DNA of 64,000 bases from Minisyncoccota bacterium (lineage in GTDB: Bacteria; Patescibacteriota; Minisyncoccia; Phycocordibacterales; CALRHW01): positions 24,293 to 88,292 of the forward strand of contig JAXLZT010000002.1 of the NCBI GenBank assembly GCA_046350795.1, read 5' to 3'. Below, in pieces: positions 18,227 to 52,600 of the stretch (the stretch's first letter is position 1; each line of letters opens with the position of its first letter). Made by a program: the position numbers and the translations under genes. The notes under the pieces were generated by a model. That model did not search any database. It had not been told where the DNA came from and was given only the letters and a program-made list of their open reading frames with translations.

Positions 18227-21200
18227 ATGGGTGATTTTTCGACTAAAAAATTTTTTCTAAAAACAGTTTTCACACTGTTTGTCTTTTTATTTTTTACTTC
18301 ACAGGTGTATGCTGCCACTATTTATTCAAATAGTAGTACAGGAAATGATTCTACTGGTGATGGTACTAGTGGTTTACCATATCGTACATTTCACAAAGCA
18401 TATACCGTGGCGAGCGCTGGTGACACTATCAATCTCACCGGTACATTTACATGGACTGATGCATCTGAAACAGGTGACGCGTCTCCAGCTGGATATACAA
18501 TAGGAAAAAATCTTACTATTGTCGGACAGGGTGCAGATGAGACTATCGTGCAATCTGCCACAGCATCTACTACGGGTGATAGACGTGTGTTTACTGTGTC
18601 TGCCGGCATAGTTGCTAATTTTGATAAATTAAACATAAGACATGGTCGTGTGACGGGTTCTGTATATGGCGGTGGTATTTATAATAGCGGTACCACTACG
18701 GTGACAAATTCGGATATAAACAACAACTCTAGTCCATCATATGGTGGAGGCGGTGTTGCAAACTACGGCATTTTTACTATCGAAGATAGTTCTATACGAA
18801 ATAATACTGGATATTATGGTGGTGGAGGTATTAGAAATATGGATTTGCTGGCAGATCTTTTTATCACAAATACCACCATTACTGGAAATCAGCAGATGTC
18901 GAGCACTGGGTATACCGATGGAGGAGGTATAGATGCGAGATATGGAGATGTGACGCTCACAAACTCTGCGATTGTTTACAACTCAGCGTATGGCACGGGT
19001 GGACTTTGTATGTGTGATACCACCGGTACTTTGACGATAAAGAATACTATTATTGCCAACAACTTAAAAAAAGGCGGTGGCTCTGCATACGATTTTTATA
19101 AAAATAATGTAGGTAGTACTGTAACTGATAATGGAAAAAATATTGTTGGAAGTTCAAATGGTAGTTACACGTGGGTGGGCTCTGGTGATTGGACGGACAC
19201 TGATTTAAACGGAAGTTTTACACTATACAGTGTCGGTACTACTGGCTCCTTAAATATGGAATCTACATCAAGCACAAATGATGATCCAGATGGTACATAC
19301 AATCACGCTATTTTTGCAAGCTCTATTGCAATAGATAATGGAGCCACTGGTGCAAACGGTGCCACATCTACTGTACCCACACTAGATCAGCGTGGTGCTA
19401 CACGTAATAGCACTACAGATATTGGTCCTTTTGAATACAATGGGGGTGGTCTTTCTATATCAGCTCCCACCACCCAAGCATCTTCTGTAACTTTTAGTTC
19501 CGTTGAATACAACAGAATGACTGTGAGTTGGACAAATGGTAACGGCTCACGACGTGTAGCTTTTATGAAAGCAGCTAGTAGCGGTACGGCGTCACCAGTA
19601 GATGGTACATCATATGCCTCAAGCTCTGTGTTTGGAAGTGGTGATCAGATCGGCTCTTCAGGATGGTATGCGATATATGATGGACTTGGGTCTAGTGTGA
19701 CTGTTACAGGACTTACACAAGGTGTTACATATATAGTGCAAGTATTTGAATACAATGGAGTTTCTTCTGGTACAGCAGATTATCTTACTGATACAGCTAC
19801 AAACAATCCAAACACACAACAATCACATGCCGTTGTTACTTTGTATGTAAATAGTTCCACAGGAAATGATTCTACCGGCGATGGATCAAGTGGAAGTCCG
19901 TATCTCACTTTTCACAAAGGATATACTTCTGCTAGTGCAGGCGACACTATAAATCTTACAGGTACTTTTACATGGACTGATTCTGGAGAGACGGGTGACT
20001 CTGCCACTACGGGTTACACACTTTCAAAAGATTTAACTATTCAAGGCAATGGTGCAGATGACACTATACTTCAGTCTGCCACAGCATCTACTACTGGAGA
20101 CAGAAGAATATTTACTGTTTCATCTGGAGCTACCGTAACTATTGATGACATTATGTTGAGAAATGGTCGTGTGACAGGCTCTGTGTATGGAGGAGCTATT
20201 GATAACAGTGGAACACTTACTATTACTGATTCTGATATCAATAATAATTCCAGTCCTTCGTATGGCGGTGGAGGAATTGTAAATTACAGCACGCTTACTT
20301 TGGACAGAGTGTCTATGTGGAACAACACTGGATATTATGGTGGTGGTGCGATTAGAAATCTAGATGCCAACGGTGATATTTTTATTACAAACTCAACGCT
20401 TGCCTATAATCAACAAATGTCTAGTGGTGTATATACCAACGGTGGAGCTATAGACATGAGGTATGGTGATCTTACTTTGACAAATTCGGTAATAGCTTAC
20501 AACTCAGCGTATGGTGTCGGTGGACTTTGTATGTGTGATACCACAGGTACTTTGACGATAAAAAATAGCATAATAGCTAGCAATCTAAAAAAAGGCGGTG
20601 GCTCTGCATATGATTTTTATAAATCAAACGCAGGTAGCACTGTAACTGATAATGGAAAAAATATCGTCGGAAGTTCAAACAGTAGTTATACTTGGGTGGG
20701 CTCTGGTGATTGGACGGACACTGATTTAAATGGAACCTTTACACTATACAGTGTCGGTACCACAGGTTCTTTAAATCAGAGTAGTACGCTAGCTACAAAC
20801 AGTGCATTAAATAATACTTACACTCTTGCTATTACTTCGGCTAGTTCAATAGCAAAAGATAATGGAGCTACAGGAACAAACGGTACCATATCTGTACCTA
20901 CCACAGATCAGCGACAAGGCACTAGAAACGGTACTACCGATATAGGTGCATATGAGTATGGTGCAACTTTTGGAGATACTACTGTGCCCACCGTGTCTGT
21001 GACGGCTCCAAGCTCTGATGCAACAGTCTCTGGCGCTAGTGTTTCTTTTACAGCAGATGCTAGTGACGATGTGGCTGTGGCGGGAGTAAAATTTTATGTA
21101 AATGGAGTATTGCAGGGAAGCGAAGACACGACTTCTACATATGGTATTACATGGGACAGTACAGCGACTACTTCGGGTGCTTATACTCTAGTAGCCGTCG

Positions 21201-22453
21201 CTCGTGATAGTTCAAATAATTATGCTACTTCTACGAGTGTTTCTTTTAATGTGTTGAATACTGGACCAACACCCACATCTGTAGTAGCTACAGGATCTGA
21301 TAATGGAGCTACTATTACTTGGACTACTGCTGATGCAGCTTCATCACGTGTATATTTTGGTCCTACCACAAGCTATGGTTCTTCTACACCAGAGACAGAT
21401 ACATCACCACGTGTTACTAGTCACTCTGTTTCTGTTTCCGGTTTACCATCCTGTGCTTACTATCATTATTATGTTGAAAGTAAAAATACTGCTTTAGATA
21501 CTGCTACTAGTTCTGATTACACTTTTTCTACTACTGGTTGCACAAGTAGTGCGTCTATTACTGCCAGCGGAAATGGCACCATAGCTACGGCTTCTGGCGG
21601 TACTTTGACACAGGGGGATATTACACTTACTGTGCCTACTTCTTTTACCAATGCATCAAGCTCTGCTATTTTTCAAGCAAATCAACTCAACTCTACGACA
21701 TTCTTTTCTGGGATAACAAATCCAAGTGGTCTTAATGCTGTTGGAGATTCTGTTTTTCATCTTTCTGCTTTCATTGATGCTACCACTACCATCTCCTCTT
21801 TTTCTGCGCCTATTTCTGTAAGGCTTGCTTATACTTCTGCTGATGTTGAAGACATAGATGAAACAACTTTGTGGATATATAGATATGATGGTTCGTCTTG
21901 GTATGCACTTAATGATTGCTCTGTAGATACATCTGGCATGACCGTCACCTGTACTACTACAAATTTTTCTGATTTCGCACTCTTTGGTGAGGGGGTTGAT
22001 AGTAGTGGGGGATCCAATAGTGGTTTTTCTGCCAATAGCCAAGTTGTAAATCTGATCAATATGGGTAAGGTGCATGACGCGGTTTTAATTATTCAAAAAT
22101 ATCCATCTATATTAAACGATAAAAATGTTCTAGATTTTTTGAAAAAATATTTAGATAGTATTGCTCTAACACAAAATGTTGATTTATCTGGGCCGAATAT
22201 TTTGATAGAAAAAGATCTCTATCTTGGTTCAGAGGGTGAAGATGTAAAAAAATTGCAGACGTTTTTGATAGCACAAAATAAAGGTCCGATTTCAAAAGAA
22301 CTCGCTCGTGTGGGTGTTACTGGATATTTTGGTCAATACACAAAAAATGCTTTAGGTGAGTTTCAGAAAAGTGTTGGTATAGTGCCGTATTCTGGATATT
22401 TTGGTCCAAAGACCAGAGCTTTTGTCAGTGATTTAAAAAATACAAAAGAATAG
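18227..22453 (+). CDS. Giant secreted surface protein: two tandem ~500-aa right-handed beta-helix modules, FN3/Ig-like domains and a C-terminal peptidoglycan-binding domain
   Basis: Signal peptide. The 500-aa unit (YSNSSTGNDSTGDG...CMCDTTGTLTIKN...GSSNGSYTWVGSGDWTDTDLNG) appears twice. Gly-rich pectate-lyase/Pmp-like turns. The C-terminus (EDVKKLQTFLIAQNKG...GYFGQYTKNALGEFQKSVGIVPYSGYFGPKTRAFV) resembles PG_binding_1. Confidence 0.6.
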   Translation: MGDFSTKKFFLKTVFTLFVFLFFTSQVYAATIYSNSSTGNDSTGDGTSGLPYRTFHKAYTVASAGDTINLTGTFTWTDASETGDASPAGYTIGKNLTIVGQGADETIVQSATASTTGDRRVFTVSAGIVANFDKLNIRHGRVTGSVYGGGIYNSGTTTVTNSDINNNSSPSYGGGGVANYGIFTIEDSSIRNNTGYYGGGGIRNMDLLADLFITNTTITGNQQMSSTGYTDGGGIDARYGDVTLTNSAIVYNSAYGTGGLCMCDTTGTLTIKNTIIANNLKKGGGSAYDFYKNNVGSTVTDNGKNIVGSSNGSYTWVGSGDWTDTDLNGSFTLYSVGTTGSLNMESTSSTNDDPDGTYNHAIFASSIAIDNGATGANGATSTVPTLDQRGATRNSTTDIGPFEYNGGGLSISAPTTQASSVTFSSVEYNRMTVSWTNGNGSRRVAFMKAASSGTASPVDGTSYASSSVFGSGDQIGSSGWYAIYDGLGSSVTVTGLTQGVTYIVQVFEYNGVSSGTADYLTDTATNNPNTQQSHAVVTLYVNSSTGNDSTGDGSSGSPYLTFHKGYTSASAGDTINLTGTFTWTDSGETGDSATTGYTLSKDLTIQGNGADDTILQSATASTTGDRRIFTVSSGATVTIDDIMLRNGRVTGSVYGGAIDNSGTLTITDSDINNNSSPSYGGGGIVNYSTLTLDRVSMWNNTGYYGGGAIRNLDANGDIFITNSTLAYNQQMSSGVYTNGGAIDMRYGDLTLTNSVIAYNSAYGVGGLCMCDTTGTLTIKNSIIASNLKKGGGSAYDFYKSNAGSTVTDNGKNIVGSSNSSYTWVGSGDWTDTDLNGTFTLYSVGTTGSLNQSSTLATNSALNNTYTLAITSASSIAKDNGATGTNGTISVPTTDQRQGTRNGTTDIGAYEYGATFGDTTVPTVSVTAPSSDATVSGASVSFTADASDDVAVAGVKFYVNGVLQGSEDTTSTYGITWDSTATTSGAYTLVAVARDSSNNYATSTSVSFNVLNTGPTPTSVVATGSDNGATITWTTADAASSRVYFGPTTSYGSSTPETDTSPRVTSHSVSVSGLPSCAYYHYYVESKNTALDTATSSDYTFSTTGCTSSASITASGNGTIATASGGTLTQGDITLTVPTSFTNASSSAIFQANQLNSTTFFSGITNPSGLNAVGDSVFHLSAFIDATTTISSFSAPISVRLAYTSADVEDIDETTLWIYRYDGSSWYALNDCSVDTSGMTVTCTTTNFSDFALFGEGVDSSGGSNSGFSANSQVVNLINMGKVHDAVLIIQKYPSILNDKNVLDFLKKYLDSIALTQNVDLSGPNILIEKDLYLGSEGEDVKKLQTFLIAQNKGPISKELARVGVTGYFGQYTKNALGEFQKSVGIVPYSGYFGPKTRAFVSDLKNTKE

Positions 22454-33265: not shown

Positions 33266-34966
33266 TCAGCCTATATCTTTTATTTTCTTTGCTAAGTATC
33301 TTTCTCCGCCCTCCATTTCTTCTGAAAGTTCTACGAATATTTTGTATTCTTCCTCTGTAAGCTCTCTCTTTGAGCTAGCTTTTTCAAGCATCTTTAGGTA
33401 TCGTCTCAAGTCTTTTTTGAGTAATTCAAATACTGCATGCATCTCTTGTTCTGTTTCTGTCTTATCTTTTTCCATCTCACGCTTTAGGTTGTGTGATTTT
33501 CTGATGATGAATAGTATTAATAGGATAAATAGAAGTATCAATACCAGAACAGTTATACCTATTGAGATTATTTGTATTGTTTTTGTACCAAACCACACCG
33601 CCTTTGTTTCCCTTACATTTACAAAGACTTTCTCTGAAGGATCGCTTTTTACTTTGTCTGTTCTTATTGTTTCTGCCCACACTGATACATTACCGATGTT
33701 TCTTATTGGTTCTGTATTAAATGAGAATATGCCATCAGGATTGGATTTTACTGTGTAGCTTTTAGCTTCAAGTCCTTCTTCTTTTATCCATACGACTATA
33801 TCTGACTCTCCGTAGAATGATTTTCCTTGGACTTCAAATTTTGAGTCTACCTGTATGAATTCTGGGTAAGTAGTGATTTTTGGTATCTTTGTGACAGGTG
33901 AGTTTATAGAAACTGTTGATTCTGTGTTGTTGCCAGCCTTATCAAACACTTTTACAGTAATATCTTTTCTTCCTGAAGGTAGAGGAGATAAGATTATTTC
34001 TTGTTCAGAATCAGACTCAACATTTGCTTCTGCTATTTTTTCTTCTCCTAAATATACTTCGTATTTAGATACTCCAGATAGTGCATCTTTTGCAGATACT
34101 GAAAGAGAAATTGTGTCTTCTTCTGTAGTTTTTGAGTATATATTTAGATCTGTTGGTTTTGTAAGATCTATTTGTATTTTTCTACTTGCTATAGGTCCAA
34201 ATCCAGATGAGTTTCTAAATCTAGCGTTTATGAATAGTTTTCCTTCCGGTAGATTTTCAAGGGTCTTTGTCTTTATTGCTGGCTGATAATTTACGTACGG
34301 TACTGTGTCAGAGAATTTACTCAATACGAGCTGAACAGCTAATACTCCAGAAGGTATATCCCAAGTAAAGTTTCCAGATGTTGTGTTGTACCAAGAATCA
34401 GCGTTAGGCATATCTGGAGAGGTTATATTTGGAGCTTTCGGTAGTGAAACAGGGGTTGTTGGTGTCACAGGCACAGTCACGGGTGTTCCAGAGACTGTTA
34501 TAGAGCCACCTCTGGCTTGTGAAAATACATTTGTTCCTTTTCCATCATTTGCTCTAATTGCAGATGAGCCAAAAGATAAGCTAGCAACACCTGCTTTTTT
34601 TGCTCTAAAGTTTACTTTTAATATATTTCCAGTCTGTCCAGAATATCCAGGATTGGGTACGCCACCATTGAAAGATACTATTCCGCTTGTGTTGGAAAAT
34701 GTTGGTTGTTCAATCCACATTGTCATGACTGAGCCAGCTGTGGTGACAGAATCAACACTCAATGTATCAGCAGGGAAGAATAGACTTCCTTCTGCGTTGT
34801 TTACTTTTACTTCGTCAGTCGATATGTATACGGTTGCTGTAAAAGTACCATTTATTGATACTTGGGATTTGTCCAATACCAAGTACATATCTGCTGCACT
34901 CGCTATTGATGGAAGGATAAAAGATAGGCAGAGTATTATTGCATAGATAAATATTTTCCTTTTCAT
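33266..34966 (-). CDS. Membrane-anchored surface protein with N-terminal cohesin-like domain and Ig/FN3-like modules
   Basis: Signal peptide. Cohesin-like segment LVLDKSQVSINGTFTATVYISTDEVKVNNAEGSLFFPADTLSVDSV...GNILKVNFRAKKAGVASLSF. C-terminal TM helix followed by a charged coiled tail. Confidence 0.5.
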   Translation of the reverse strand: MKRKIFIYAIILCLSFILPSIASAADMYLVLDKSQVSINGTFTATVYISTDEVKVNNAEGSLFFPADTLSVDSVTTAGSVMTMWIEQPTFSNTSGIVSFNGGVPNPGYSGQTGNILKVNFRAKKAGVASLSFGSSAIRANDGKGTNVFSQARGGSITVSGTPVTVPVTPTTPVSLPKAPNITSPDMPNADSWYNTTSGNFTWDIPSGVLAVQLVLSKFSDTVPYVNYQPAIKTKTLENLPEGKLFINARFRNSSGFGPIASRKIQIDLTKPTDLNIYSKTTEEDTISLSVSAKDALSGVSKYEVYLGEEKIAEANVESDSEQEIILSPLPSGRKDITVKVFDKAGNNTESTVSINSPVTKIPKITTYPEFIQVDSKFEVQGKSFYGESDIVVWIKEEGLEAKSYTVKSNPDGIFSFNTEPIRNIGNVSVWAETIRTDKVKSDPSEKVFVNVRETKAVWFGTKTIQIISIGITVLVLILLFILLILFIIRKSHNLKREMEKDKTETEQEMHAVFELLKKDLRRYLKMLEKASSKRELTEEEYKIFVELSEEMEGGERYLAKKIKDIG

Positions 34967-35839
34967 TTATTTATTTTTGTAGAATTTCCAAAATCCAAAA
35001 AATACTATCAATATAAATATGATTATACTAATAATTTTCATCCAAGGCTTGCTGTTTTGTGGATTAAAGGTTGATGTCCTTTCGTTACCCGCATTATCTA
35101 TTGCTTTTACTGTAATAAGACTAGAGAGACTCTGGTCTTGTAAAACATAAGGACTTCCTGATCTCACTGGTGCGCGATTTCCTTCTGTTATTTCGTATCT
35201 GTTTATTCCAGAGTCGTTATCTGTAGTAAAGAAACTGATAAAATATTTACCATCAAATAGAGAATGGGTGCTTCCAAAATCTATATTAAATTTATTTGGT
35301 GGAGTTTTATCGTTATTTGTGAGCGACACGAGTTCATTTTCGTTTGTTCCTGATATTTGCACTGGTATTTGAATAGAGTCACCTGAAACTGCGGTTTTTG
35401 TACCTTTACCGTCATTTAGAAATGCTGTTGCATTTACTAGGTTTATTTTTATTGGCTCTGTGTTTGTTGGTTTTACTGCTATTGTGAAAAGTCTCAGAGA
35501 TTTTCCATATACTCCAGCTGTGGTACCACCAACGAAAGATATTTTGTCGCTATTAATATCTAGTGATGGTTTTCTTGGCCATAAGTCAAAGATTGATCCA
35601 CCTGTATTTATAGAAACCACATCTTTTGGTGTACTAAACTTTATTTCACCTTCTATTGCGTTTATTTCTTCGGCCGTATCAAGCATTACTTTTATGATAC
35701 TTGTGTTGCCAACGCTGATTGGTTTTTCTGGTAGGTCAACAAATATTTTTGCTGCATTTGCATAAGAGGGTATTGCAAATACGAAAAGTAATGTTATGGC
35801 TATGCGCGCGGTGATCTTTTGTAAAAGTTTTTTATTCAT
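34967..35839 (-). CDS. Membrane-anchored cohesin-like domain protein (start set at MNKKLLQKIT)
   Basis: Signal peptide. IKVMLDTAEEINAIEGEIKFSTPKDVVSINTGGSIFDLW...LRLFTIAVKPT parallels the cohesin-like segment of the neighbouring gene. C-terminal TM anchor. Confidence 0.5.
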   Translation of the reverse strand: MNKKLLQKITARIAITLLFVFAIPSYANAAKIFVDLPEKPISVGNTSIIKVMLDTAEEINAIEGEIKFSTPKDVVSINTGGSIFDLWPRKPSLDINSDKISFVGGTTAGVYGKSLRLFTIAVKPTNTEPIKINLVNATAFLNDGKGTKTAVSGDSIQIPVQISGTNENELVSLTNNDKTPPNKFNIDFGSTHSLFDGKYFISFFTTDNDSGINRYEITEGNRAPVRSGSPYVLQDQSLSSLITVKAIDNAGNERTSTFNPQNSKPWMKIISIIIFILIVFFGFWKFYKNK

Positions 35840-35849
35840 GATTTTCAAT

Positions 35850-38450
35850 TTATATAACACTTCCGGAAGTGCCCCATTGTGAAAGAAGTATTGAGAAATC
35901 AACAGAGTTGACTGTGCTGTCTTGATTTATATCTACACATTCGTTTTGAAATGGCGCTATATTTTTCCAAAAAGCAAGCAAGATAGAGAAATCTACAGAG
36001 TTTACTATGTTGTCGGAGTTGAAATCTGCACCTTTACATGAGCCGGTATTACCTGATGATGAACTTCCGCCACCACTACTTCCGCCGCCACCACCGCCAC
36101 CGCCGGAGCTACCACCCCCACTGACTGTGAATGTTCTAGATGATCCTGAAGAATCTGTACCGAAGTACACTATGAGTTTGAAATAATAATCTCCTGCAGA
36201 ATCAACTGTCGCTGTAAGGTTTGTATTCCAATCTTCTCCTGGGTTTATAAATTTAGCACCTGTTGCGTGATATTCATCGTCTCCACCGCCACAAGAGTTT
36301 GATGCGCTAGATACAACGCACCATTCGTATTGGTATTCATATCCAGCTAGACCTTCGTTTGTAATTGTTACGTTTGCGCTGATATCAGAGACTGAGTTTG
36401 CTGTAACACTATTTATAATTACCTGAGCAGGGGAGCCAGCTACTAGCCAGTAATCGTTGTTTGTAAGTGTTTTACCACTTTCAACTTGTGTACTTATAAC
36501 ACTTTCCCATACGCCCTGAGTCGCACCAGAGGCTACAGAATATGTGTATTCATATATACCGGTTCCTACAGATGACATCGCAACATTTGATACTGTTACA
36601 TTTCTGAGAGGATCGTAAAGTGTGATTGTTGGTGTAGCAAATGGGGAAGTAGGAACACTGTTGTTATTTCTGATTTCAATTCTAGCTCTGTATGTTTCGC
36701 CAGCTTGAACTTCGTTGAAGTCTGACATTACTGTTGTCCAGCCAGAGCTTCCGCCGATTGCGCTTATCGCTGAAGCAAGAGATGTACTAGCAGTTAAAAC
36801 GCTACTATTTGTATTACTATTCACAGCACTTGTACCAGCTGTGATCGCTGAAGCCAAACTACTTGTCGCTGTCTGTACGTCAGACAATGTTGCGAGACTT
36901 CCGCTTGTGAGTGCTCCGCTTGTTAGAGTACGTACAGAGTTTGACCAGACATCAGACGCAAGTGTGCCGAAAGAGGTGAGTGTTCTACCACTATATGACC
37001 AAATCACTGCAGGAATTGTTGCAAACAAGCTTGATGAAGCTGTTGCGATCTCTGCGTCAGTGTTTGCGTTTACATCAGTCACTATATTCGCTGTCGCACT
37101 ATTGGTATTTGCGTTGATTACAGCAGCCAAACTAGATGTAGCTGTTGTCACCACTGAGCTTGTGTTGCTGTTTACAGCACTTGTACCAGCTGTGATCGCT
37201 GAAGCCAAACTACTTGTCGCTGTCTGTACGTCAGAAAGTGTTGCGAGAGAGCCAGATGTGAGCGCTCCACTTGTTAGAGTACGTACAGAATTTGACCAGA
37301 CACTAGATGTCACATCAGCTACGAGCGTACCAAAAGATGTAAGTGTTCTTCCGCTATATGACCAGATTGTTGCGGGAAGTGTAGCGAATAGAGATGATGA
37401 GGCCGTTGCAATCTCAGCATCAGTGTTTGCATTTACGTCAGTTACTATGTTTGCAGTAGCGCTGTTTGTGTTCGCATTAATAACCGCGGCTAGACTAGAT
37501 GAAGCTGTTGCAACCCTTGAGTCAGTGTTTGAGTTTACGACAGCAGCCAAACTACTTGTCGCTGTCTGTACGTCAGACAATGTTGCGAGACTTCCGCTTG
37601 TGAGTGCTCCGCTTGTTAGAGTACGTACAGAGTTTGACCAGACATCAGACGCAAGTGTGCCGAAAGAGGTGAGTGTTCTACCACTATATGACCAAATCAC
37701 TGCAGGAATTGTTGCAAACAAGCTTGATGAAGCTGTTGCGATCTCTGCGTCAGTGTTTGCGTTTACATCAGTCACCATATTCGCTGTCGCACTATTGGTA
37801 TTTGCGTTGATTACAGCAGCCAAACTAGATGTAGCTGTTGTCACCACTGAGCTTGTGTTGCTGTTTACAGCACTTGTACCAGCTGTGATCGCTGAAGCCA
37901 AACTACTTGTCGCTGTCTGTACGTCAGAAAGTGTTGCGAGAGAGCCAGATGTGAGCGCTCCACTTGTTAGAGTACGTACAGAATTTGACCAGACATCAGA
38001 AACTAAGCTACCAAAGGAGCTAAGTGTACGAGTAGTACTGTTCCAAACAGCATTCGCTATGGTACTTGTAGCAGCTATTGTCGCTCCGACTGTAAAGGTT
38101 TTATTTACTTTCACTAAATCACCGTTAGAAATGTTCCCACACGTCATATAAGTAGGCCAATTGCCCTCACTTTCTCCAGCACCAATAGAAAAATTGTAGT
38201 ATGTCCAACCATTTGCATTGGCTGTCATTGCACCAGCGTTTAATTTTACGCTTCCAGAAGGATCGTAGATAGTCAGAGTACAGCCAGCAGTAGTTGTTGC
38301 TACAAAATCATCATCATAAACAAACTCACCTATAGTAATAGTGTCACCAAGAGAAGCTCTTTGATAGTCCGCTTTTGCTGTATTTGAAAAAGACAAAAAC
38401 AACCCAAAAAATAAAATGCAAAATGCAAAAAAGGGTAGTGTTTTTTTCAT
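35850..38450 (-). CDS. Large secreted dockerin-containing repeat protein (start set at MKKTLPFFAF)
   Basis: Signal peptide. Four or more ~110-aa tandem repeats (WSNSVRTLTSGALTSGSLATLSDVQTATSSLA...NANTDAEIATASSSLFAT). A Gly/Ser linker. A C-terminal type-I dockerin pair (DFNSDNIVNSVDFSILLAFW, DINQDSTVNSVDFSILLSQW) with canonical Ca-loop positions 1,3,5,9,12. Confidence 0.7.
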   Translation of the reverse strand: MKKTLPFFAFCILFFGLFLSFSNTAKADYQRASLGDTITIGEFVYDDDFVATTTAGCTLTIYDPSGSVKLNAGAMTANANGWTYYNFSIGAGESEGNWPTYMTCGNISNGDLVKVNKTFTVGATIAATSTIANAVWNSTTRTLSSFGSLVSDVWSNSVRTLTSGALTSGSLATLSDVQTATSSLASAITAGTSAVNSNTSSVVTTATSSLAAVINANTNSATANMVTDVNANTDAEIATASSSLFATIPAVIWSYSGRTLTSFGTLASDVWSNSVRTLTSGALTSGSLATLSDVQTATSSLAAVVNSNTDSRVATASSSLAAVINANTNSATANIVTDVNANTDAEIATASSSLFATLPATIWSYSGRTLTSFGTLVADVTSSVWSNSVRTLTSGALTSGSLATLSDVQTATSSLASAITAGTSAVNSNTSSVVTTATSSLAAVINANTNSATANIVTDVNANTDAEIATASSSLFATIPAVIWSYSGRTLTSFGTLASDVWSNSVRTLTSGALTSGSLATLSDVQTATSSLASAITAGTSAVNSNTNSSVLTASTSLASAISAIGGSSGWTTVMSDFNEVQAGETYRARIEIRNNNSVPTSPFATPTITLYDPLRNVTVSNVAMSSVGTGIYEYTYSVASGATQGVWESVISTQVESGKTLTNNDYWLVAGSPAQVIINSVTANSVSDISANVTITNEGLAGYEYQYEWCVVSSASNSCGGGDDEYHATGAKFINPGEDWNTNLTATVDSAGDYYFKLIVYFGTDSSGSSRTFTVSGGGSSGGGGGGGGSSGGGSSSSGNTGSCKGADFNSDNIVNSVDFSILLAFWKNIAPFQNECVDINQDSTVNSVDFSILLSQWGTSGSVI
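36830..38000. repeat. Near-identical tandem DNA repeats (about 690 bp x2, each containing about 330-bp sub-repeats) inside the dockerin protein gene
   Basis: Blocks such as TCAGACAATGTTGCGAGACTTCCGCTTGTGAGTGCTCCGCTTGTTAGAGTACGTACAGAGTTTGACCAGACATCAGACGCAAGTGTGCC recur verbatim near 36880 and 37570. The shadow ORF 36715..38151 repeats identical peptide blocks. Confidence 0.7.
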
Positions 38451-38541
38451 GAGAATATTTGATTCAATAATATTTGATTCAAACTGATTAGTAAAGAAAT
38501 ATATCCACAGATTTTTCATTTATTTGTTCAAATAACATGTT

Positions 38542-39153
38542 ATGATATTTATAGTTTTTATGTTTTCCTTTGCACCAAATAAATTTTCTTTTCGTTTAAT
38601 TAGGAAAGGAAAAATAAAAAAAGAAAACGGTGAAAGTGTACCGGCTATTGGCGATTTCGATAAGCGCCTTTTCTTGAAAGTACTTGGTACAGCTGGAGTA
38701 GGTGTGTTTGCTGCAACAATGTTTCCCAAGAAAGCAGACGCTCTCATCATGGGAAGCACTCCTTCTTCTAGTGTTGTTGGGTTAAAAGATGATTCAAATA
38801 CTCGTATAAATCCAGCCACAGAAGAAAGTTTGCAGAGTTTGCTAAGCGGTCAGGGGGTAAACAAAATCACAACAAGCCTGAGCTCGTCTGGCACGGTGGT
38901 TACACCATCTTCTGGTAAAAAGTTGCGTATATATAGTACACGTTTTTCTTTGAGTGCTGATGCCACTTATGTTTCTTTCCGTTTTACATCTGGTGGCACA
39001 GATAAAGAAAAATATATTTCACCAAAAACTGGTGGTTTGTATGGTTCCAACAACCATCCCAACTATATAGAAGGTGGTGTGAATGAAGTTTTTTATTGCG
39101 CTATCAGTGGTACGACTACTGTGCAGATAAATGTGGATTATTTAGAAGTATAA
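38542..39153 (+). CDS. Secreted protein with Tat-like signal (KRLFLK + hydrophobic core + ADA), unknown function
   Basis: DKRLFLKVLGTAGVGVFAATMFPKKADALI resembles a twin-arginine (here K-R) signal peptide with an AxA cleavage site. The start codon is uncertain (no in-frame ATG nearby). Confidence 0.4.
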   Translation: MIFIVFMFSFAPNKFSFRLIRKGKIKKENGESVPAIGDFDKRLFLKVLGTAGVGVFAATMFPKKADALIMGSTPSSSVVGLKDDSNTRINPATEESLQSLLSGQGVNKITTSLSSSGTVVTPSSGKKLRIYSTRFSLSADATYVSFRFTSGGTDKEKYISPKTGGLYGSNNHPNYIEGGVNEVFYCAISGTTTVQINVDYLEV

Positions 39154-39174
39154 TAGTGTATAATTAAAAAAATT

Positions 39175-41835
39175 ATGGCGAAAAGAGCGATAGAACATTT
39201 ATTTACCGGCACGACAACACCGTATTCCGTCTATGATTCTACAAAAACAGTTTTGGGTGACTTGATTCAGCAATACACAGGCGCGACTTCAACAGACAAA
39301 TTTGCCGGACCAACAAAAATCGGTGTCGCTAGACCCAACGAAACCGGTACAGCTATACCAGCTATTTATCCACACGTTATTTCTTGGGCTGATAAGAGAG
39401 GTTATTATAGCACTGGTACTGTATCTGCTTCAGGCACCTCTGTAACAGGTAGTGGTACATCATGGATTTCAAACGGTGTACCAATCGGTGCGCAAATTGG
39501 TTTTGGCAGTACAGATCCAGGGTCAATCACAACCTGGTATACCATAAGCACTGTTCCTTCAAATACTTCTATTACAATATCCTCTTCTGCTGGCACAATA
39601 GCTGGCGGAACATCTTACGTTATAAATAAAGAATTACAAAAAGATTGGGTATTTTTGGCTGACAACGCCACAGCGGCTGCCACTCGTCGTATTACTTGTT
39701 TTGAATACAATAGATCGACATCACTTTTTTCTTGGAGAGGTTTTATTACCATTACATATCCTTCTGGAGGAGGTAATCAAACCATCAGAGGTATGCGTGT
39801 GATATATGACACATACACCACAGGAACAGTCGGTGTTTCTGGTGCTACGGTGACAGGTAGCGGTACTACTTGGTCTGCTGATCGTATTGCCATTGGTTCA
39901 AGAATTGGTTTTGGTAGTACAGATCCCACTCAAATATCTACTTGGTATTATATAAATGCCGTCGGTGGCGATACTTCTATTACTATTCAAACAAACGTTA
40001 CTGCCAGTGGTACTGGAGGTACTGCTGCAAACATTTCCATAGCTTCAAGCACTGCTTATGTTATAGAAGATTTAAAGGTGCTGACAGCCACCACTGCTGT
40101 GGTGGTTGCTGCTGGAGGTTTGGCGGTGGTAAATGGTCTCTCTTATGATGATTTTGCTGTTGGAGGTACTACTATCGCTGCCGCGACTACAGTAGACAAA
40201 ACAAAAGCTGTATATTGTTTGGTTGATTTGGACTCTCTATATTCTACTGGTACCGTAACAGTGCCTTCTTCTACTACAGTTACAGGAAGCGGTACTTCTT
40301 GGGCAGCTGCAACACACTTGGGTTGTATGATTGGTTTTGGATCTACAAATCCAGCTTCTATTACTACTTGGTATACTATTACGGCGGTTGGTTCTACTAC
40401 ATCACTCACCATTTCTTCTGCAGCAACAGTTTCTGGAGGTACTGCGTATGTGATAGTGGGTGGAAACGGTATTTCTGGTGGTTTGGCTATTGATGATAGA
40501 GTGAGTTGGACTGAACAACATGCATATATTATTGAGGTCCAGGCTGGTACGACACCTCAGGTATATAAATACAATTTTCGTGCAAATTTAAACACATTAG
40601 GAAACGTGGCAGCAGGTAAGTCGGCTTGTGGCTGGATGCTTACTACTGGTACACAGACTGTTACAGGTACAGTTTCTCAGACAAACAACGGAAGAATAGG
40701 AACTTTGTCCCACGGTCCAGGATCTGGTGTTAAATGTTTATATTTTGCTGCCACAACTCGTATTCATAGGGCACCCCTTTCTGCTATTGTTCAGGGAAGC
40801 TCAACGTGGGTATCTGATTCTATGACCGAAATACCTACTGGAGGTACTGGTACATATACCGCTTCGAGTCTTATGACATCTGTAGAAATTGCTGATCAAA
40901 TAGACAGACTTATTATCACATCTACAGGTGCTGGAGGTACTACAGCTCACCATCGTGCTTATATTACAAAGTATGATTCTTCTGGTTCTTATGTTTTTGA
41001 TCACATATTTTTGACAGATAGTGCCCAGCAAGATCAATCTACAGCAGATTCTGATTCTACACCTCATCCAAATCCTCAGGGTGCTGCTTTGTCTGTATGG
41101 TCACAGGGAGGATTGGTATATATGGCACGTACTGGTACAGCTTCTACTACAAACATAATGTATTCAGTACCACTTGGTGCTGATTGGCAGTATGCTGACG
41201 GGACGGTAAAACAAAGACTTGTTACACCTGAGCTTTCTACCACAAACGCTACAAAACTTTCTCGTGTGTATATCAACGATGTCGGATATTTGGGATCAGG
41301 TGGTCTCACTATGCCTACAGAGCCGATTCGTATTTATTATAGAACTACTGGAATAGATGATGATTCTGGAACTTGGACACTAGTAGATCAGACGGGGGAT
41401 TTGGCAGAAGCAACACCAGCATCTACTGTACAATTTGCTATAGAGTTTAGATTAATTGGTGCCACATGTATACCAAATAGAGTTTTCAATTTGTGTTGTA
41501 CATACGAGGACAATACAACAGACAGTCATTATCAGCCGTCTGTTGCGCAATCTTCGATTACAAGCAAGCGTTTTGCATGGAGATTTTCAACAGCGTTTGG
41601 TGGTACTGTGCCGACTCTCAGAATACGACTATATAATGCAGAGACAGATGGTTTGATTTTGGATGATACAACCACAGCATCTGCTTCTGGAACATTTGAG
41701 AAGTCTACTGATGATGGTCAAAACTGGGGTTCATACAATACAACAGACAAGGGAAATGAAACTACTTACATTCGTTATACACCGACATCTTTGGCTGATG
41801 ATATAAAAGTAAGAGCCCTTTTAACTCAAAACTAA
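39175..41835 (+). CDS. 886-aa protein with three ~70-aa Trp-containing internal repeats; unknown function (surface/fibre-like)
   Basis: Repeats: GTSVTGSGTSWISNGVPIGAQIGFGSTDPGSITTWYTIS; GATVTGSGTTWSADRIAIGSRIGFGSTDPTQISTWYYIN; TTVTGSGTSWAAATHLGCMIGFGSTNPASITTWYTIT. Ser/Thr/Gly-rich with no recognisable catalytic motif. Confidence 0.45.
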   Translation: MAKRAIEHLFTGTTTPYSVYDSTKTVLGDLIQQYTGATSTDKFAGPTKIGVARPNETGTAIPAIYPHVISWADKRGYYSTGTVSASGTSVTGSGTSWISNGVPIGAQIGFGSTDPGSITTWYTISTVPSNTSITISSSAGTIAGGTSYVINKELQKDWVFLADNATAAATRRITCFEYNRSTSLFSWRGFITITYPSGGGNQTIRGMRVIYDTYTTGTVGVSGATVTGSGTTWSADRIAIGSRIGFGSTDPTQISTWYYINAVGGDTSITIQTNVTASGTGGTAANISIASSTAYVIEDLKVLTATTAVVVAAGGLAVVNGLSYDDFAVGGTTIAAATTVDKTKAVYCLVDLDSLYSTGTVTVPSSTTVTGSGTSWAAATHLGCMIGFGSTNPASITTWYTITAVGSTTSLTISSAATVSGGTAYVIVGGNGISGGLAIDDRVSWTEQHAYIIEVQAGTTPQVYKYNFRANLNTLGNVAAGKSACGWMLTTGTQTVTGTVSQTNNGRIGTLSHGPGSGVKCLYFAATTRIHRAPLSAIVQGSSTWVSDSMTEIPTGGTGTYTASSLMTSVEIADQIDRLIITSTGAGGTTAHHRAYITKYDSSGSYVFDHIFLTDSAQQDQSTADSDSTPHPNPQGAALSVWSQGGLVYMARTGTASTTNIMYSVPLGADWQYADGTVKQRLVTPELSTTNATKLSRVYINDVGYLGSGGLTMPTEPIRIYYRTTGIDDDSGTWTLVDQTGDLAEATPASTVQFAIEFRLIGATCIPNRVFNLCCTYEDNTTDSHYQPSVAQSSITSKRFAWRFSTAFGGTVPTLRIRLYNAETDGLILDDTTTASASGTFEKSTDDGQNWGSYNTTDKGNETTYIRYTPTSLADDIKVRALLTQN

Positions 41836-41836
41836 T

Positions 41837-42445
41837 ATGATTCACATAGAAAATAATTCAGAGATTATAGAGAATAAAAATTTAAGAGTCGCTTCTCCTA
41901 CAGGTGATTATGAAGACACTGCTCTTGTAGATTTCTTTGATATTAGTAAGCCGGGTATGGTAGCTGGTTCTTTTCAGGCTCAATATATAAAATATGGCGG
42001 TCTCGTTTATAAATTTAACGAGCCATCAGAGCTCGGTGAAGCTATTTTAAAAGTAGACCCAGAATCTACACATTCAGCGGCATCTTATGTGCGCATGAGC
42101 AAGGAGCTTTTGGCTCAGATGAATGGTGGCACCCTAGATTCTTCTTCTCTTGATCAAATTAGGGTTGAAGAAAAAAATATTGTAGAAGAATCAGAGCCTG
42201 TAATACAAGAGCCAGCAGTACAAGATCCTGTTGTAGAAAAACCAAAAAAGCCAGAAAGGACTCGCAAACCAACACTTTCTTCTATGGACGGCGCTTTGTC
42301 TACTACCACTCCAGTTACCACCACATCATCTGATAACATAATAGAAGATGTCCAGTCTGTGGTAGAAGATGTTACCGTAAAAGCAGAACAAATCTCTAGA
42401 ACAGCAGAAAAAATATCAGATGTTGTAGAACAAATCGTTAGATAA
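41837..42445 (+). CDS. Acidic hypothetical protein with Pro/Glu/Thr-rich low-complexity tail
   Basis: 202 aa. The start overlaps the preceding stop (translational coupling). No motifs recognised. Confidence 0.4.
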   Translation: MIHIENNSEIIENKNLRVASPTGDYEDTALVDFFDISKPGMVAGSFQAQYIKYGGLVYKFNEPSELGEAILKVDPESTHSAASYVRMSKELLAQMNGGTLDSSSLDQIRVEEKNIVEESEPVIQEPAVQDPVVEKPKKPERTRKPTLSSMDGALSTTTPVTTTSSDNIIEDVQSVVEDVTVKAEQISRTAEKISDVVEQIVR

Positions 42446-42449
42446 AAGC

Positions 42450-42629
42450 TATGGCTCTTACAGATGTAAATTTTAATGAGGGTGAGGTGCAAGATTTTTT
42501 ACTGGAAATACCAACCGCTGTTTACTCTGGATCTTTAGAGGATGTCTTGGTGGAAGAGTCAGGTAGTCAAACATTGATGTCTGAGATACCAGAAGCCTCT
42601 GGCGGAAATATCTTCATAATGTCAGAATA
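42450..42629 (+). CDS. Small acidic hypothetical protein (59 aa)
   Basis: An ATG 5 nt after the previous stop and an uninterrupted frame (MALTDVNFNEGEVQDFLLEIPTAVYSGSLEDVLVEESGSQTLMSEIPEASGGNIFIMSE). Confidence 0.3.
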
Positions 42630-42634
42630 GTGGG

Positions 42635-43366
42635 GTGGATGGATTAAAAGAAAATTTTAAAAAGTTTCTACCTTATTTAGAGGATTTACGTAGGAAGCTC
42701 TATTTTTCTACAATATTCTTTCTTGCTGTTTTTATAATAGGTTTTTTCTCTTCTGCTTTTATTATTAAAAGTGTAGTAGATATCTTTAGAATGAGTGGTG
42801 TGGTTATTGCCACTACTTCTCCATTTCAATTTGCAGATGTTGCAATGGATATCGGCTTTTTTTCAGCCATTATTTCAACTCTACCAATAGTGGTTTTTCA
42901 GATTTTCTCTTTTGCTTCTCCGGCACTTACCAATAGAGAGAAAAAATGGTTTTTTCTAGCTGTACCTATTAGTATTATATTTTTTCTGTCAGGATTTTCT
43001 TATGGTTTCTTGATTCTTTATTATTCTTTTGGTCTTTTAGCAAAAATAAATAGCGGTCTTGGTGTGCAAAATATATGGGACGTAAGCTCTTTTTTGTCAC
43101 AGATTTTTATTACGTCATCACTTCTTGGTGTGGTATTTCAATTTCCAATTATACTAACGGCTCTAATAAAAATCGGTATTATTAGTCGAGACTTTTTAAG
43201 TCAAAAGAGGCGCTTTGCTTACTTCTTGGTGTTCGTTCTGGTGTCTTTACTTCCACCTACTGATGGGCTATCATTATTAGCAATGGGATTGCCATTGGTT
43301 TTTTTGTACGAATTTACAATTTTAATTAATATTAAAAAACAACAACATGTTTGGATTAGGAACTAG
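42635..43366 (+). CDS. tatC: Twin-arginine translocase subunit TatC
   Basis: 243 aa and 6 TM helices. The N-terminus LEDLRRKLYFSTIFFLAVFIIGFF is typical of TatC. Confidence 0.7.
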   Translation: MDGLKENFKKFLPYLEDLRRKLYFSTIFFLAVFIIGFFSSAFIIKSVVDIFRMSGVVIATTSPFQFADVAMDIGFFSAIISTLPIVVFQIFSFASPALTNREKKWFFLAVPISIIFFLSGFSYGFLILYYSFGLLAKINSGLGVQNIWDVSSFLSQIFITSSLLGVVFQFPIILTALIKIGIISRDFLSQKRRFAYFLVFVLVSLLPPTDGLSLLAMGLPLVFLYEFTILINIKKQQHVWIRN

Positions 43367-43505
43367 AGAGCTCATAATACTTGCGATAATCTTCATTCTA
43401 CTTTTTGGTGCAAAGAAGATTCCAGAACTTTCAAAGAGTATAGTAGAGGCTATCAGACACATGAGAGGTGCTTTCAAGGATATTGATGAGCCGAAGAAGA
43501 AGTAG
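43347..43505 (+). CDS. tatA: Twin-arginine translocase subunit TatA/E (52 aa; below the ORF-track length cutoff)
   Basis: MFGLGTRELIILAIIFILLFGAKKIPELSKSIVEAIRHMRGAF matches the TatA consensus (MFG.G..ELIII..I.LLFGAKKLPELG...G..IR.F). Overlaps the tatC 3' end. Confidence 0.65.
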   Translation: MFGLGTRELIILAIIFILLFGAKKIPELSKSIVEAIRHMRGAFKDIDEPKKK

Positions 43506-49617: not shown

Positions 49618-52600
49618 GTGGTATTAATAATTTATGAAAAAACCACAAATTTTATGAAAAATCTCTTATTTATTGGGGCAAGAGGGCAAAAACACAGTCT
49701 TTTATCAAGGTTTTTTATTAAATCGACAGCAGGGCTGTTGATTTTTTTATTTGCTTTTCCGGTGGGGGTAGTTTGGGGAGAAGATCACAGTATCGATAAA
49801 AACCACAACAGATCAGCTGAAAAAACAGATACAATAAAACCATCAGACCCAGAAAAACACGATGTTGGTGTTGTACCAACTATATCTGAAGTAGCTCCAT
49901 CTCATAGATCAAAAAAGGATTCTAGAGATGAATCTGATAAGGAGGTGGTTCCACAGTTATTGCTTGATGAAGATGCAAATAATATAGTAGAAAATCCTAG
50001 TTCAATAAAAAGTTTATTGCCTGACGTTGATACTTTTTCTGGATCTCTTGTTTATAAATATCCAATAGTTTTGCCAGCTGGTCGCAACGGTCTTACCCCA
50101 AGTCTTGATCTTACATACAATAGTGGTTTGTCATTAAATAATAGTATTTCTGGATACAACTGGTCTCTTTCTATTCCTTTTATAGAACGTATAAACAGAA
50201 AAGGTGCTGACAAGCTTTACTCAAGGAATGATTTTGTATCGTCTCTTTCAGGTGAGCTTGTAGCAGAAAATGGTACCACTAAATATACAGCAAAAGTTGA
50301 TGAAGGTTCTTTTCTAGATTATACATTCACAAATGATACTTGGACTGCTGTAGATAAACAGGGAACAAAATATACTTTCGGCTCTACTACTCAGTCACGT
50401 TTAAACAATGCTTCTAACGCATCAGAAACTTATCGTTGGATGGTGGAAGAGATTCGTGATAAAAATGACAATTTCATTAGATTTGAGTATGAAAAAGACA
50501 GTAATCAAATCTATCCTTCAAATATTTTTTATACAGGATATGGAAGTACGGACGGTATTTTTGAAGTAAATTTTAATTATGAAAATAGAGAAGATGAAAC
50601 CAATAGTTTTGCATCAAGATTTGAGATGGTTACTTCAAGGCGTCTTGAGAACATAGAAATAAATATAAACGGTGTTTTATCAAAGAAATATTCTTTAGCA
50701 TACATCGCTGGTCACAACACCGTCAGATCTTTATTAAAATCAATCACTGTGTCGGCTGGAACCACCACATTGCCTGCAACGGAATTTGAATATCAGACTA
50801 TACCAAAAAAATTAGAATTTAAACCTGATGTTTTTCAGTCACCATCATTTTACAGGCCATCTACATCAGATTATGCTTTTATTGAATTAAAAGAGAGTCC
50901 TGAATCTACAAATAGACTTGTTGATGTCAACGGCGATGGTCTTTTGGATTTTATACGTACTTCTAATAGCGAAAACAGTGATGGTATTGTTCATGACATA
51001 AATAATGATTTGCCTCGCGTTTTCCTAAACACAGGTCATAGTTGGGAATTTAATCCAGATAAATACCAGTTACCTTCTTATTACCGACCTAGTACAAATG
51101 ATTATAAGTATATGGTTCTAAATGATGTCAATAAACTCATTGATGTTAACGGGGACAATTTACCAGATTTTATTCATACTTCAGATGTAGCTGATGCTGA
51201 TGGTGTGATCACTAACAACAATGATGGTTTCCCGAGAGTCTATTTAAATACTGGTAATGGTTGGGAATTTAATCCAGATAAATATCAATTACCTTCTTAT
51301 TACCGACCTAGTACAAATGATTATTTTTTCTTTCAGACAAAAGAAGAGGAGCACGATGTTACGCAGATAATAGATGTCAACGGTGATGGGCTACCAGATT
51401 TTGTGCGTACATCCGACGATGAGGATGCTGATGGTGTTGTTCTTAACAATAACAACTCTGCTCCTCGTGTATATCTAAATACTGGTAACGGTTGGGAATT
51501 TAATCCAAATAAATATCAACTTCCTGTTTATTACAGACCTAGTACAAATGATTATTATTTTATGGCACTTAAATCTGTCCCAGGATCTACAAACAGACTT
51601 ATTGATGTCAATGGTGATGGGTTAGTAGATTTTTTGAGAACAAATGACACTGAGGATGCTGATGGAGTTGTTTTAAATAACAACGGTGATGCACCACGTG
51701 TTTATCTAAATACTGGCAACGGCTGGGAATTTAATCCAGATCACTATCAGCTTCCTGTGTATTACAGACCGCCTACAAATGATTATCATTTTATGGCACT
51801 TAAGGAGTTTACACAGCTTGCTGATGTAAATGGCGACGGTTTGCCAGATTTTGTCCGTACAGACGATGGTGAGCATGCGACGGGTGTTATAACAAATCTA
51901 AATGGTGATGGTCCACGTGTTTATCTAAACACAGGAAATGGTTGGAAGTTTGATCCCGATTTGTATCAGTGGCCGGCATTTTACAAGCCAGCTACAAACA
52001 ATTATGAGTGGAGAGCTTTGAAGACTAGTAATCAGCTCATAGATATAAACGGTGATAATCTATTGGATTTTGTGCGCACATCTGCTGGTGAGGATGCTGA
52101 TGGACTAATACTTAATAATAATGGTGATGGATCTCGTGTATATATAAATACAGGAAAAGGTTGGGAATTTAACCCTGATTTATATCAATTACCTTCGTAT
52201 TATAGACCGTCTACATCAGACTATTATTTTATGCAACTTTCATATTACTCTAAATTTGCTGATATAAACAACGATGGATTGCAAGATTTTATTAAGACTA
52301 CAAGCGAATTTGATTCTGATGGTCTTATTCTGAATAATCTAAACGATGGTGCAAGAGTATACCAGAATGTTGGGGAAACCGCTGATTATTTAGCAGCTGT
52401 TATTTTTCCAGAGGGTGGAGAGGCACATTTCGATTATCAACTTGAAATAATAAACGGCAGAAATCCAAGTAGTCCATATTATTCTCAAAATGTTTCTGTG
52501 CTTAAAGATATTGTCATAGATGATGGTCTGGGGAATCTAGCAACAAGTACATATAAGTACAAAGATGGAGAGTATTTTTATCATAACGATCCATTTAAAC

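Follow-up and report, generated by a model that had tools for sequence, protein, structure and literature searches.

We describe a three-gene operon in which, as read from the sequence, a Ca-dependent dockerin-cohesin plug likely holds a fibre or adhesin of variable length on two type I membrane anchors. The operon lies in a 64-kb window (the whole stretch of DNA analysed, 64,000 nucleotides) from an ultra-small bacterium of the Paceibacterota (Patescibacteria/CPR). Patescibacteria account for a large share of bacterial diversity, and the lifestyle assumed for most of them is attachment to other cells; to our knowledge, almost nothing is known, apart from type IV pili, of the means by which they keep structures on their surface or make contact with hosts. 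This compact, highly conserved operon, with its recognisable and biochemically tractable modules (dockerin, two cohesins, transmembrane (TM) anchors), provides a directly testable handle.

The three ORFs abut in the order A, B, C, and they and all their parts lie on the minus strand. Gene A (35850..38519; an exact match to NCBI MFO0719035.1, 'hypothetical protein') encodes a predicted secreted, dockerin-tipped fibre protein with Pfam MG2 and Dockerin_1 domains, gene B (34967..35839; MFO0719034.1, 'hypothetical protein') a 290-aa type I membrane protein, and gene C (33266..34966; MFO0719033.1, 'cohesin domain-containing protein') a type I membrane protein of 566 aa with a full-length AF2 model. 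The intergenic gaps amount to 10 nt between the stop codon of A and the ATG of B and to 0 nt between B and C, the ATG of C directly abutting the stop codon of B. The ORF of A has 889 aa, the form used by NCBI, and a start at M24 would give 866 aa. Since MKKTLPFFAFCILFFGLFLSFSNTAKA (residues 24-50; 38370..38450), where hydropathy peaks (residues 22-48), reads as a Sec-type signal peptide, without twin arginine, M24 is the likelier start. Its ATG, at 38450, corresponds to the end coordinate given in the initial annotation.

A type I dockerin had been proposed at the C-terminus of A (residues 826-889; 35853..36044), and profile searches bore this out. Pfam Dockerin_1 (PF00404) matched residues 832-878 with 26.3 bits, above the gathering cut-off of 22.9, and a profile of 35 CPR dockerins matched solved type I dockerins with E values from 1e-10 to 1e-6 (1daq_A, 1e-10; 2mte_A, 2e-10; 4fl4_A, 8e-8). 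The module is a tandem of segments of about 22 residues, DFNSDNIVNSVD followed by FSILLAFW and DINQDSTVNSVD followed by FSILLSQW, each made of an EF-hand-like loop and a helix, the two helices (NSVDFSILLAFW and NSVDFSILLSQW) being near-identical. Both 12-residue loops (D832-N834-D836-N840-D843 and D863-N865-D867-N871-D874) carry Asp or Asn at the canonical liganding positions 1, 3, 5, 9 and 12, which are invariant or nearly so in the 35 family dockerins, and a Cys pair (C828, C861) is also conserved in the family. At the sequence level, these findings establish the C-terminal module of A as a type I-like dockerin whose two predicted Ca-binding loops are intact.

Hydropathy points to a signal peptide and a hydrophobic C-terminal helix in both B and C, the pattern of type I membrane proteins, which is also found in most of their homologues; the AF2 model of C has helices at 2-15, 455-533 and 538-565. 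The membrane anchoring suggested initially for both proteins agrees with these data, and the TM helix plus charged tail described for each was only partly confirmed. B consists of signal peptide, cohesin module, Ig-like domain and TM helix. After this helix (residues ~283-305 in the numbering of the 311-aa ORF; 34988..35056) comes only a short tail, KFYKNK, of 6-7 residues. The long charged tail is a feature of C only, where the TM helix (463-488) precedes 78 charged, helical cytoplasmic residues (489-566; 33269..33580 with the TM helix), retained in 94-98% of aligned homologues.

The N-modules (~135 aa) of B (residues 50-182 of the 311-aa ORF; 35357..35755) and C (residues 25-160, with the family motif NDGKGT; 34487..34894) are paralogous (28% identity, E 5e-13). 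Pfam Cohesin (PF00963) gave no match on B or C, even at E ≤ 1, so that the HMMER check proposed for this domain did not score them directly. The link to cohesins came through their family: the homologue P0001, 38% identical to C, matches PF00963 at 5e-8, and a profile of 46 family sequences, including the B module, reached solved cohesins at about 1e-4 (5g5d_A, 1e-4; 5m2o_A, 2e-4), cohesins making up 9 of its 14 matches. The AF2 model of the cohesin module (pLDDT 97.9) is a predicted nine-stranded flattened beta-sandwich (jelly-roll). In known cohesins, the dockerin-binding face is the 8-3-6-5 sheet. Residues conserved in the family (N33, S56, W61, F76, G78-G79 and N117-T122, module numbering) are placed by the model on or beside strands 3, 5 and 6 and the 8/9 loop. 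The outermost module of both proteins can thus be assigned a cohesin fold, through paralogy and the family profile and HMM for B, and also through the predicted structure for C. In C, a Pro/Thr linker, flexible and disordered (residues 161-180), and three Ig-like beta-sandwich domains (about 181-266, 272-356 and 363-452; linker and domains, 33611..34486) keep the cohesin at a distance from the membrane; in B, one such domain does so. In the full-length model of C (mean pLDDT 88.1), the cohesin is predicted to sit at the membrane-distal tip; Foldseek matched the stalk to tandem FN3/Ig arrays, and weak matches to Big_13, OmpL47 and DUF7743 were found in it. A distant metagenomic relative from outside the locus, P0022, has nine cohesin-like modules and a dockerin.

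The body of A had been described as non-enzymatic, with about four repeats, and both points held. After the signal peptide comes a beta-rich N-terminal domain (residues ~51-157; 38049..38369) that is kept in orthologues (consensus of 38 A orthologues, GEFV..DD..TT.CT..I..P...GWHYY...G.WP..CG..GDL), followed by the repeat region (158-596; 36732..38048), an MG2-type (alpha-2-macroglobulin-like) Ig-like domain (605-682; 36474..36707; PF01835, 36.7 bits vs a cut-off of 32.8) and a Gly/Ser linker (800-825; 36045..36122). In a PDB search, this linker matched synthetic scFv (G4S) linkers. The repeats amount to ~3.75 copies of an Ala/Ser/Thr/Asn-rich unit of 110-121 aa (~117), the four copies having 117, 110, 121 and, for the truncated one, 91 aa; each unit contains two W-x(4-5)-R-T-L-[TS] motifs. 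At the DNA level (repeat families D1 and D2), four copies are spaced by 342-351 nt, and a 300-nt stretch is 100% identical between two of them. Among 38 complete A orthologues, Pfam found Dockerin_1 in all 38, MG2 in 20, and otherwise almost exclusively Ig-like/FN3-type structural domains; no glycoside hydrolase, esterase, lyase, other catalytic domain or CBM was found by Pfam in A and 37 complete orthologues. A is thus a non-enzymatic protein that combines Ig-like/MG2 domains with Ala/Ser/Thr-rich repeats, the latter in variable number. Its domain composition suggests that it most likely serves as a fibril for adhesion or host contact, with a length that would be tuned by the number of repeats.

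We considered the possibility that A is anchored as proposed but is a structural part of the envelope, e.g. the protomer or tether of the layer or fibrillar coat seen at the surface of CPR cells. The lineages concerned have the trio almost without exception, once per locus, and the order A-B-C is fixed across many Patescibacteria lineages, as would fit a housekeeping structure; with 7,572 representatives at 50% identity, the family is very large, and A orthologues have conserved N- and C-terminal domains besides the dockerin. Yet, A orthologues range from 284 to 3,104 aa and contain 0 to 17 W..RTLT motifs, a spread more usual in adhesins or variable surface fibres than in lattice-forming S-layer proteins, and no S-layer domain was detected among their Pfam matches. 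We regard a role as envelope component as possible, with a rather low probability.

A second possibility was that the modules do not pair: each of them, the dockerin of A as well as the cohesin folds of B and C, would bind something else, e.g. host cell-wall glycans, and the genes would be neighbours through a common envelope process. There is a precedent in a Saccharibacterium, where an essential dockerin-domain protein has neighbours that are not cohesins (Wang et al. 2023, PMC10633639). Yet, in 80 related loci from Patescibacteria MAGs (1.12 Mb plus the window; 2,642 six-frame ORFs), 65 of the 66 ORFs with a double dockerin motif, from diverse lineages, were found at most 90 nt upstream of a cohesin-like gene or slightly overlapping it. 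Counted by locus, a dockerin-ended gene stood directly upstream of the two cohesin genes in 65/79 related loci, which answers in the affirmative the question of whether the trio occurs in related genomes; at about half of the 14 others, the upstream gene could not be scored because the contig ends there. The window has one dockerin ORF, and neither there nor in the sequence flanking the 80 loci was a further dockerin protein found. The dockerin and the cohesin are also the best-conserved parts of their proteins: mean pairwise identity is 60% for the dockerin, the most conserved module of all, 48% for the cohesin of C, where it is the most conserved part, and 31% for that of B. Mirror-tree correlations between the dockerin and either cohesin were weak (partial r 0.25-0.27) and confounded by phylogeny. 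Furthermore, the predicted position of the cohesins at the tip is where a partner would dock, and every characterised cohesin-dockerin pair that we know of interacts with its partner type. The gene adjacency is not due to chance and, being strict and phylum-wide, it supports the predicted dockerin-cohesin pairing. Independent binding functions appear quite unlikely.

In the anchored-fibre mechanism that we favor, the dockerin of A would fold round two Ca2+ ions after export and plug into the cohesin of B and/or C, and A would therefore be tethered to the cytoplasmic membrane. Because the halves of the dockerin are near-identical (internal two-fold symmetry) and two different cohesin partners are always present, the dockerin may use a dual-binding mode, docking on one anchor or the other, or may link B and C in a 1:1:1 complex. 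Through its cytoplasmic helical tail, C may connect the structure with the cell interior. As the trio recurs across the phylum, it is probably a general way for these bacteria to hold a surface fibre and not a cellulose-degrading machine.

A minimal cellulosome for complex carbohydrates, the reading of Kantor et al. 2013, would account for the two hallmark modules but is highly improbable given a cargo devoid of enzyme domains and CBMs in all the orthologues analysed, one cohesin per anchor, one dockerin gene per locus, and no carbohydrate-active genes flanking the trio in the window. The term 'cellulosome-like' used initially is thus apt for the two module types and not for the rest, as enzymes, CBMs and a multi-cohesin scaffoldin are absent (B and C have one cohesin each). 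[quoted passage not shown] 2013, PMC3812714). 'Cohesin' and 'dockerin' similarly serve as polysaccharide-degradation categories across a MAG set that includes CPR (PMC7038595). The present findings correct this standing mis-reading, by which cohesin and dockerin matches in CPR are counted as cellulosome-type degradation.

Comparison with known systems brings out what is particular to the trio. Anchoring scaffoldins (C. thermocellum SdbA/OlpB/OlpA/OlpC, 2bm3, 3ul4, 4dh2; A. cellulolyticus ScaC, 4uyp; R. flavefaciens ScaE, 2zf9) are attached to a Gram-positive wall by SLH domains or sortase and carry an enzyme-loaded scaffoldin, whereas in B and C the anchor is a TM helix at the C-terminus and the load would be a single fibre protein, without enzymes or CBMs. 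The CPR dockerins share with dual-binding type I dockerins (C. thermocellum Xyn10B, 1ohz/2ccl; C. cellulolyticum, 2vn5/2vn6) the duplicated 22-residue segment, the EF-hand-like loops and the near-identical helices. They differ from them in the DFSI[LM]L signature of their helices, which is invariant, in the conservation of a Cys pair and of a Trp after each helix, and in being conserved phylum-wide instead of species-specific. Non-cellulosomal pairs, on which a survey by Peer et al. in 2009 is said to touch, include modules of the Clostridium perfringens GH33/GH84 toxin complexes (2vo8, 2w1n, 2o4e) and of Archaeoglobus fulgidus (2xdh). The C. perfringens modules join secreted glycosidases, whereas here two paralogous type I membrane proteins carry the cohesins, a non-enzymatic repeat fibre carries the dockerin, and all three genes form one phylum-conserved operon. 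Fibrillar adhesins and stalks made of tandem Ig-like/FN3 domains (PrgB, 8beg; GhpA, 9flw; a large adhesion protein, 6xi3) resemble C in its ectodomain and A outside its repeats, with beads-on-a-string arrays of beta-sandwiches. Unlike the trio, in which separate fibre and anchor would be joined by the plug, they are single polypeptides with covalent or secretion-system anchoring.

A more far-reaching version of the anchored-fibre mechanism, which we consider unlikely, is that Patescibacteria have a host-contact (or main surface) organelle of which the trio is the core throughout the phylum. The symmetric dockerin would then bind B and C simultaneously, forming with them a heterotrimeric, Ca-dependent socket, the tail of C would couple engagement of the fibre inward, and repeat expansion in A would tune reach or host range. 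The initial annotation had also placed the trio beside tatCA, and this was confirmed for tatC (42635-43366; Pfam E 4.7e-38), which is adjoined by a TatA-like ORF of 52 aa (43347-43505). If such an organelle exists, the conserved divergent Tat-substrate/'tail-fibre-like'/tatCA cluster next door could be part of the same apparatus.

Genes A (35850-38519), B (34967-35839) and C (33266-34966) follow one another head to tail on the minus strand. Their products are identical to database entries: the 889-aa ORF of A corresponds to MFO0719035.1 and B to MFO0719034.1, both recorded as 'hypothetical protein', and C corresponds to MFO0719033.1, a 'cohesin domain-containing protein'. NCBI labels the source MAG Candidatus Paceibacterota bacterium, and its pipeline already names many A orthologues dockerin type I proteins and C a cohesin-domain protein. 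The stop codon of A is separated from the ATG of B by 10 nt and the gap between B and C is 0 nt; this spacing points to a single transcription unit. A scan for promoters and terminators gave counts no better than those of shuffles.

Protein A ends in a dockerin (residues 826-889), as the initial annotation had claimed and as was borne out by the Pfam model Dockerin_1 (26.3 bits for a cut-off of 22.9). This domain comprises two 12-residue loops, with D/N at positions 1, 3, 5, 9 and 12, each followed by the helix NSVDFSILL..W. It is directly preceded by a natural Gly/Ser linker, the (G4S)n-like composition of which explains why the top PDB sequence matches of A are scFv linkers. A profile of 35 orthologous dockerins matched solved type I dockerins with E values down to 1e-10. 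The family consensus is C.GADFN.D.KVNSVDFSILLAFWKT.PPF.N.CVDIN.D.KVNSVDFSILLYQWG, with a conserved Cys pair, and conservation within the trio is highest in the dockerin (mean pairwise identity of 60%, followed by 48% for the C cohesin and 31% for the B cohesin). In A (35853-36044) and across the related loci L001-L080, the cysteines stand four residues before loop 1 and two before loop 2 (C828 and C861 in A), and an invariant W closes each helix. Neither feature is known to be typical of type I dockerins from clostridia. The two cysteines may form a disulfide staple.

The body of A was described earlier as about four Ser/Thr/Ala-rich repeats of 110 aa without enzymatic character. The non-enzymatic nature held, no enzyme domain being present, as did the repeats, but the fourth is incomplete: residues 158-596 repeat 3.75 times a unit of 110-121 aa that has a high content of Ala, Ser, Thr and Asn and includes two W-x(4-5)-R-T-L-[TS] motifs. 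The Pfam model MG2 also matches A (36.7 bits for a cut-off of 32.8). At the DNA level, a repeat search placed the copies 342-351 nt apart, while Tandem Repeats Finder did not detect these 351-nt repeats. Two stretches of 300 nt (36852-37151 and 37545-37844) are 100% identical, the remaining copies being 78-85% identical. This reflects either recent gene conversion or repeat expansion, or possibly a collapse in the MAG assembly, and the real number of repeats in A may therefore differ. A plus-strand ORF of 478 aa (36715-38151) runs opposite the repeats; most likely it is no gene and merely results from the codon composition of the Ala/Ser/Thr repeats.

The true start of A is probably M24 at 38450, where a classical Sec signal peptide begins. 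The 69 nt located 5' of this codon appear to be non-coding and contain, just upstream of the ATG, a perfect 15-nt tandem repeat (38454-38482; consensus AATATTTGATTCAAT, 1.9 copies) that falls within the NCBI-annotated coding part of A. It is possibly an operator or promoter element in a 91-nt divergent intergenic region.

B and C each consist of a signal peptide, an N-terminal module of ~135 aa and a C-terminal TM helix, and their N-terminal modules are paralogous (28% identity, E 5e-13). The proposal that these modules are cohesin-like received no direct confirmation from Pfam, as neither module scored with the Cohesin model, and NCBIfam gave no Cohesin match either. Searching B and C against PDB sequences with phmmer yielded noise only, and a 5-sequence profile of the module did not reach solved cohesins. 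These were reached only by a 46-sequence family profile (E 1e-4 to 2.5e-4), with which 9 of the 14 matches were cohesins. Furthermore, a homologue 38% identical to the C module matched PF00963 at 5e-8, and the AlphaFold2 model of the C module was of extremely high confidence (pLDDT 97.9, pTM 0.90). The profile, the homologue and the model are what links the modules to the cohesins.

The full-length model of C (mean pLDDT 88.1) shows the cohesin at residues 25-159, a disordered Pro/Thr linker and three beta-sandwich domains (181-452), and Foldseek matched this ectodomain to tandem FN3/Ig arrays. The TM helix extends into a long helix (455-533), and another helix occupies residues 538-565. The highly charged, conserved cytoplasmic tail (residues 489-566, 78 aa; 33269-33502, minus strand) forms a helical hairpin in the model, and it is kept in 94-98% of aligned homologues. 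Both anchors had been credited with a TM helix and a charged tail; the helix is present in both, but the tail belongs to C, B being almost tail-less.

The arrangement is conserved well beyond this genome. A scan in which each GTDB species was represented by one genome, based on a closer alignment of 10 sequences (the broad alignment had no conserved stretch), provided 80 loci, nearly all in Patescibacteria MAGs: Paceibacteria/Parcubacteria, Nomura-, Uhr-, Kerfeld-, Doudna-, Wildermuth-, Yanofsky-, Niyogi-, Buchanan- and Gribaldobacteria, some of these MAG labels being coarse or doubtful. In 65 of 79 related loci, the two cohesin genes are directly preceded by a gene with a double dockerin loop at its end. 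Of the remaining 14, about half are truncated at a contig end, so that the upstream gene could not be scored; in several others, an upstream ORF is lacking or shows no dockerin motif by the criteria used. Conversely, a double motif occurs in 66 ORFs of the 1.12 Mb and the window, 65 of which directly precede a cohesin-like gene (median gap 6 nt), and none of the loci has a second dockerin ORF.

The N-terminal module belongs to a large family. An exhaustive HMMER search with its profile found 7,572 representatives (clusters at 50% identity) at E<=1e-3 and 5,354 at E<=1e-10; word-index searches, which gave only 3 (C module) and 7 (46-sequence profile) matches, were too insensitive to reveal it. 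Two main size classes were apparent, B-like (~290-310 aa) and C-like (~560-590 aa). Many proteins of 600-900 aa resemble B-C fusions, and numerous representatives of 530-900 aa (P0004-P0030 and others) have a pair of cohesin-like modules along with internal hydrophobic segments, arranged as B fused to C would be. Whether these are genuine fusions or gene calls that were merged, they provide independent support for a partnership of B and C. P0026 (919 aa) has three cohesin-like modules. A metagenomic protein from outside the window, P0022 (2276 aa), has nine tandem cohesin-like modules of the CPR family and a C-terminal double dockerin motif. This architecture is truly scaffoldin-like and suggests that some relatives build higher-order assemblies. 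P0022 was the only natural fusion of cohesin and dockerin found as a proxy for pairing; not being informative for the trio locus, it was set aside.

We considered the possibility that the trio serves carbohydrate degradation, as in the cellulosome-related reading of an OD1 gene cluster by Kantor et al. 2013 (PMC3812714). The cargo composition speaks against this reading, which we regard as highly improbable. A orthologues range from 284 to >3,000 aa. Apart from the dockerin, their common parts are an N-terminal domain and two C-terminal beta domains, all of them conserved, as well as a poly-Gly linker; between these parts lie 0-17 W..RTLT repeats. Among 38 complete orthologues, Pfam detected Dockerin_1 in all 38 and MG2 in 20, the other matches being nearly all Ig-like structural domains (Big_6, FN3, Big_13 and similar); no glycoside hydrolase, esterase, lyase, protease or CBM was found. 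Having no multi-cohesin scaffoldin, enzymes or CBM, the trio is not a cellulosome. A phage-fibre origin of A was not supported either, since PHROGs gave nothing significant on A, B or C.

The nature of the modules, their topology at the membrane and the strictness with which the genes adjoin one another support instead a dockerin-cohesin plug that would tether a secreted, non-enzymatic fibre of variable length to two type I membrane anchors; the arrangement first noted from the sequence is real, and its interpretation was essentially right. The dockerin of A would bind one, either or both of the B and C cohesins, and the fibre would act as an adhesin rather than as an envelope component. The near-identical dockerin halves and the two constant cohesin partners make a dual-binding or bridging mode an attractive idea. 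The trio is closest to non-cellulosomal cohesin-dockerin systems; in function, anchoring scaffoldins come nearest, but the trio differs from them by its TM anchoring, paired anchors and fibre cargo. The modules are known, whereas the arrangement (a phylum-wide operon for a fibre cargo and a pair of membrane anchors) is uncharacterised, no description of it having been found in the searchable literature. It offers a tractable way into CPR surface biology. An essential dockerin-domain protein has been described in a Saccharibacterium (Wang et al. 2023, PMC10633639), but the genes next to it do not encode cohesins. The Southlakia dockerin protein SEML1_0315 is not part of the same trio, its neighbours being an alpha/beta hydrolase and a tRNA.

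Divergently from A, a plus-strand cluster (38542-43505) encodes proteins of 203, 886 and 202 aa, followed by tatC and a 52-aa tatA-like ORF. The 203-aa protein has a Tat-like signal, DKRLFLK, kept as [KR]R.FLK in 24 orthologues, and, among the 43 loci that extend at least 1.5 kb upstream of A, 24 encode a homologue. The 886-aa protein has no signal peptide, matches PHROG 1591 'tail fiber protein' (E 7e-15) and is ~80% identical in four loci (L002, L003, L004 and L056), where it is better conserved than the trio. This cluster may be a Tat-exported, perhaps hitch-hiking, surface module linked to the trio. Further along the plus strand (49618-56316) lies the gene for a Tc-toxin/RHS-like protein of 2,232 aa that combines SpvB and RHS-repeat domains; in so tiny a genome, it is a candidate for a contact-dependent toxin. 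Elsewhere in the window, 18227-22453 encodes a 1,408-aa protein with Big_7 and PG_binding_1 domains.
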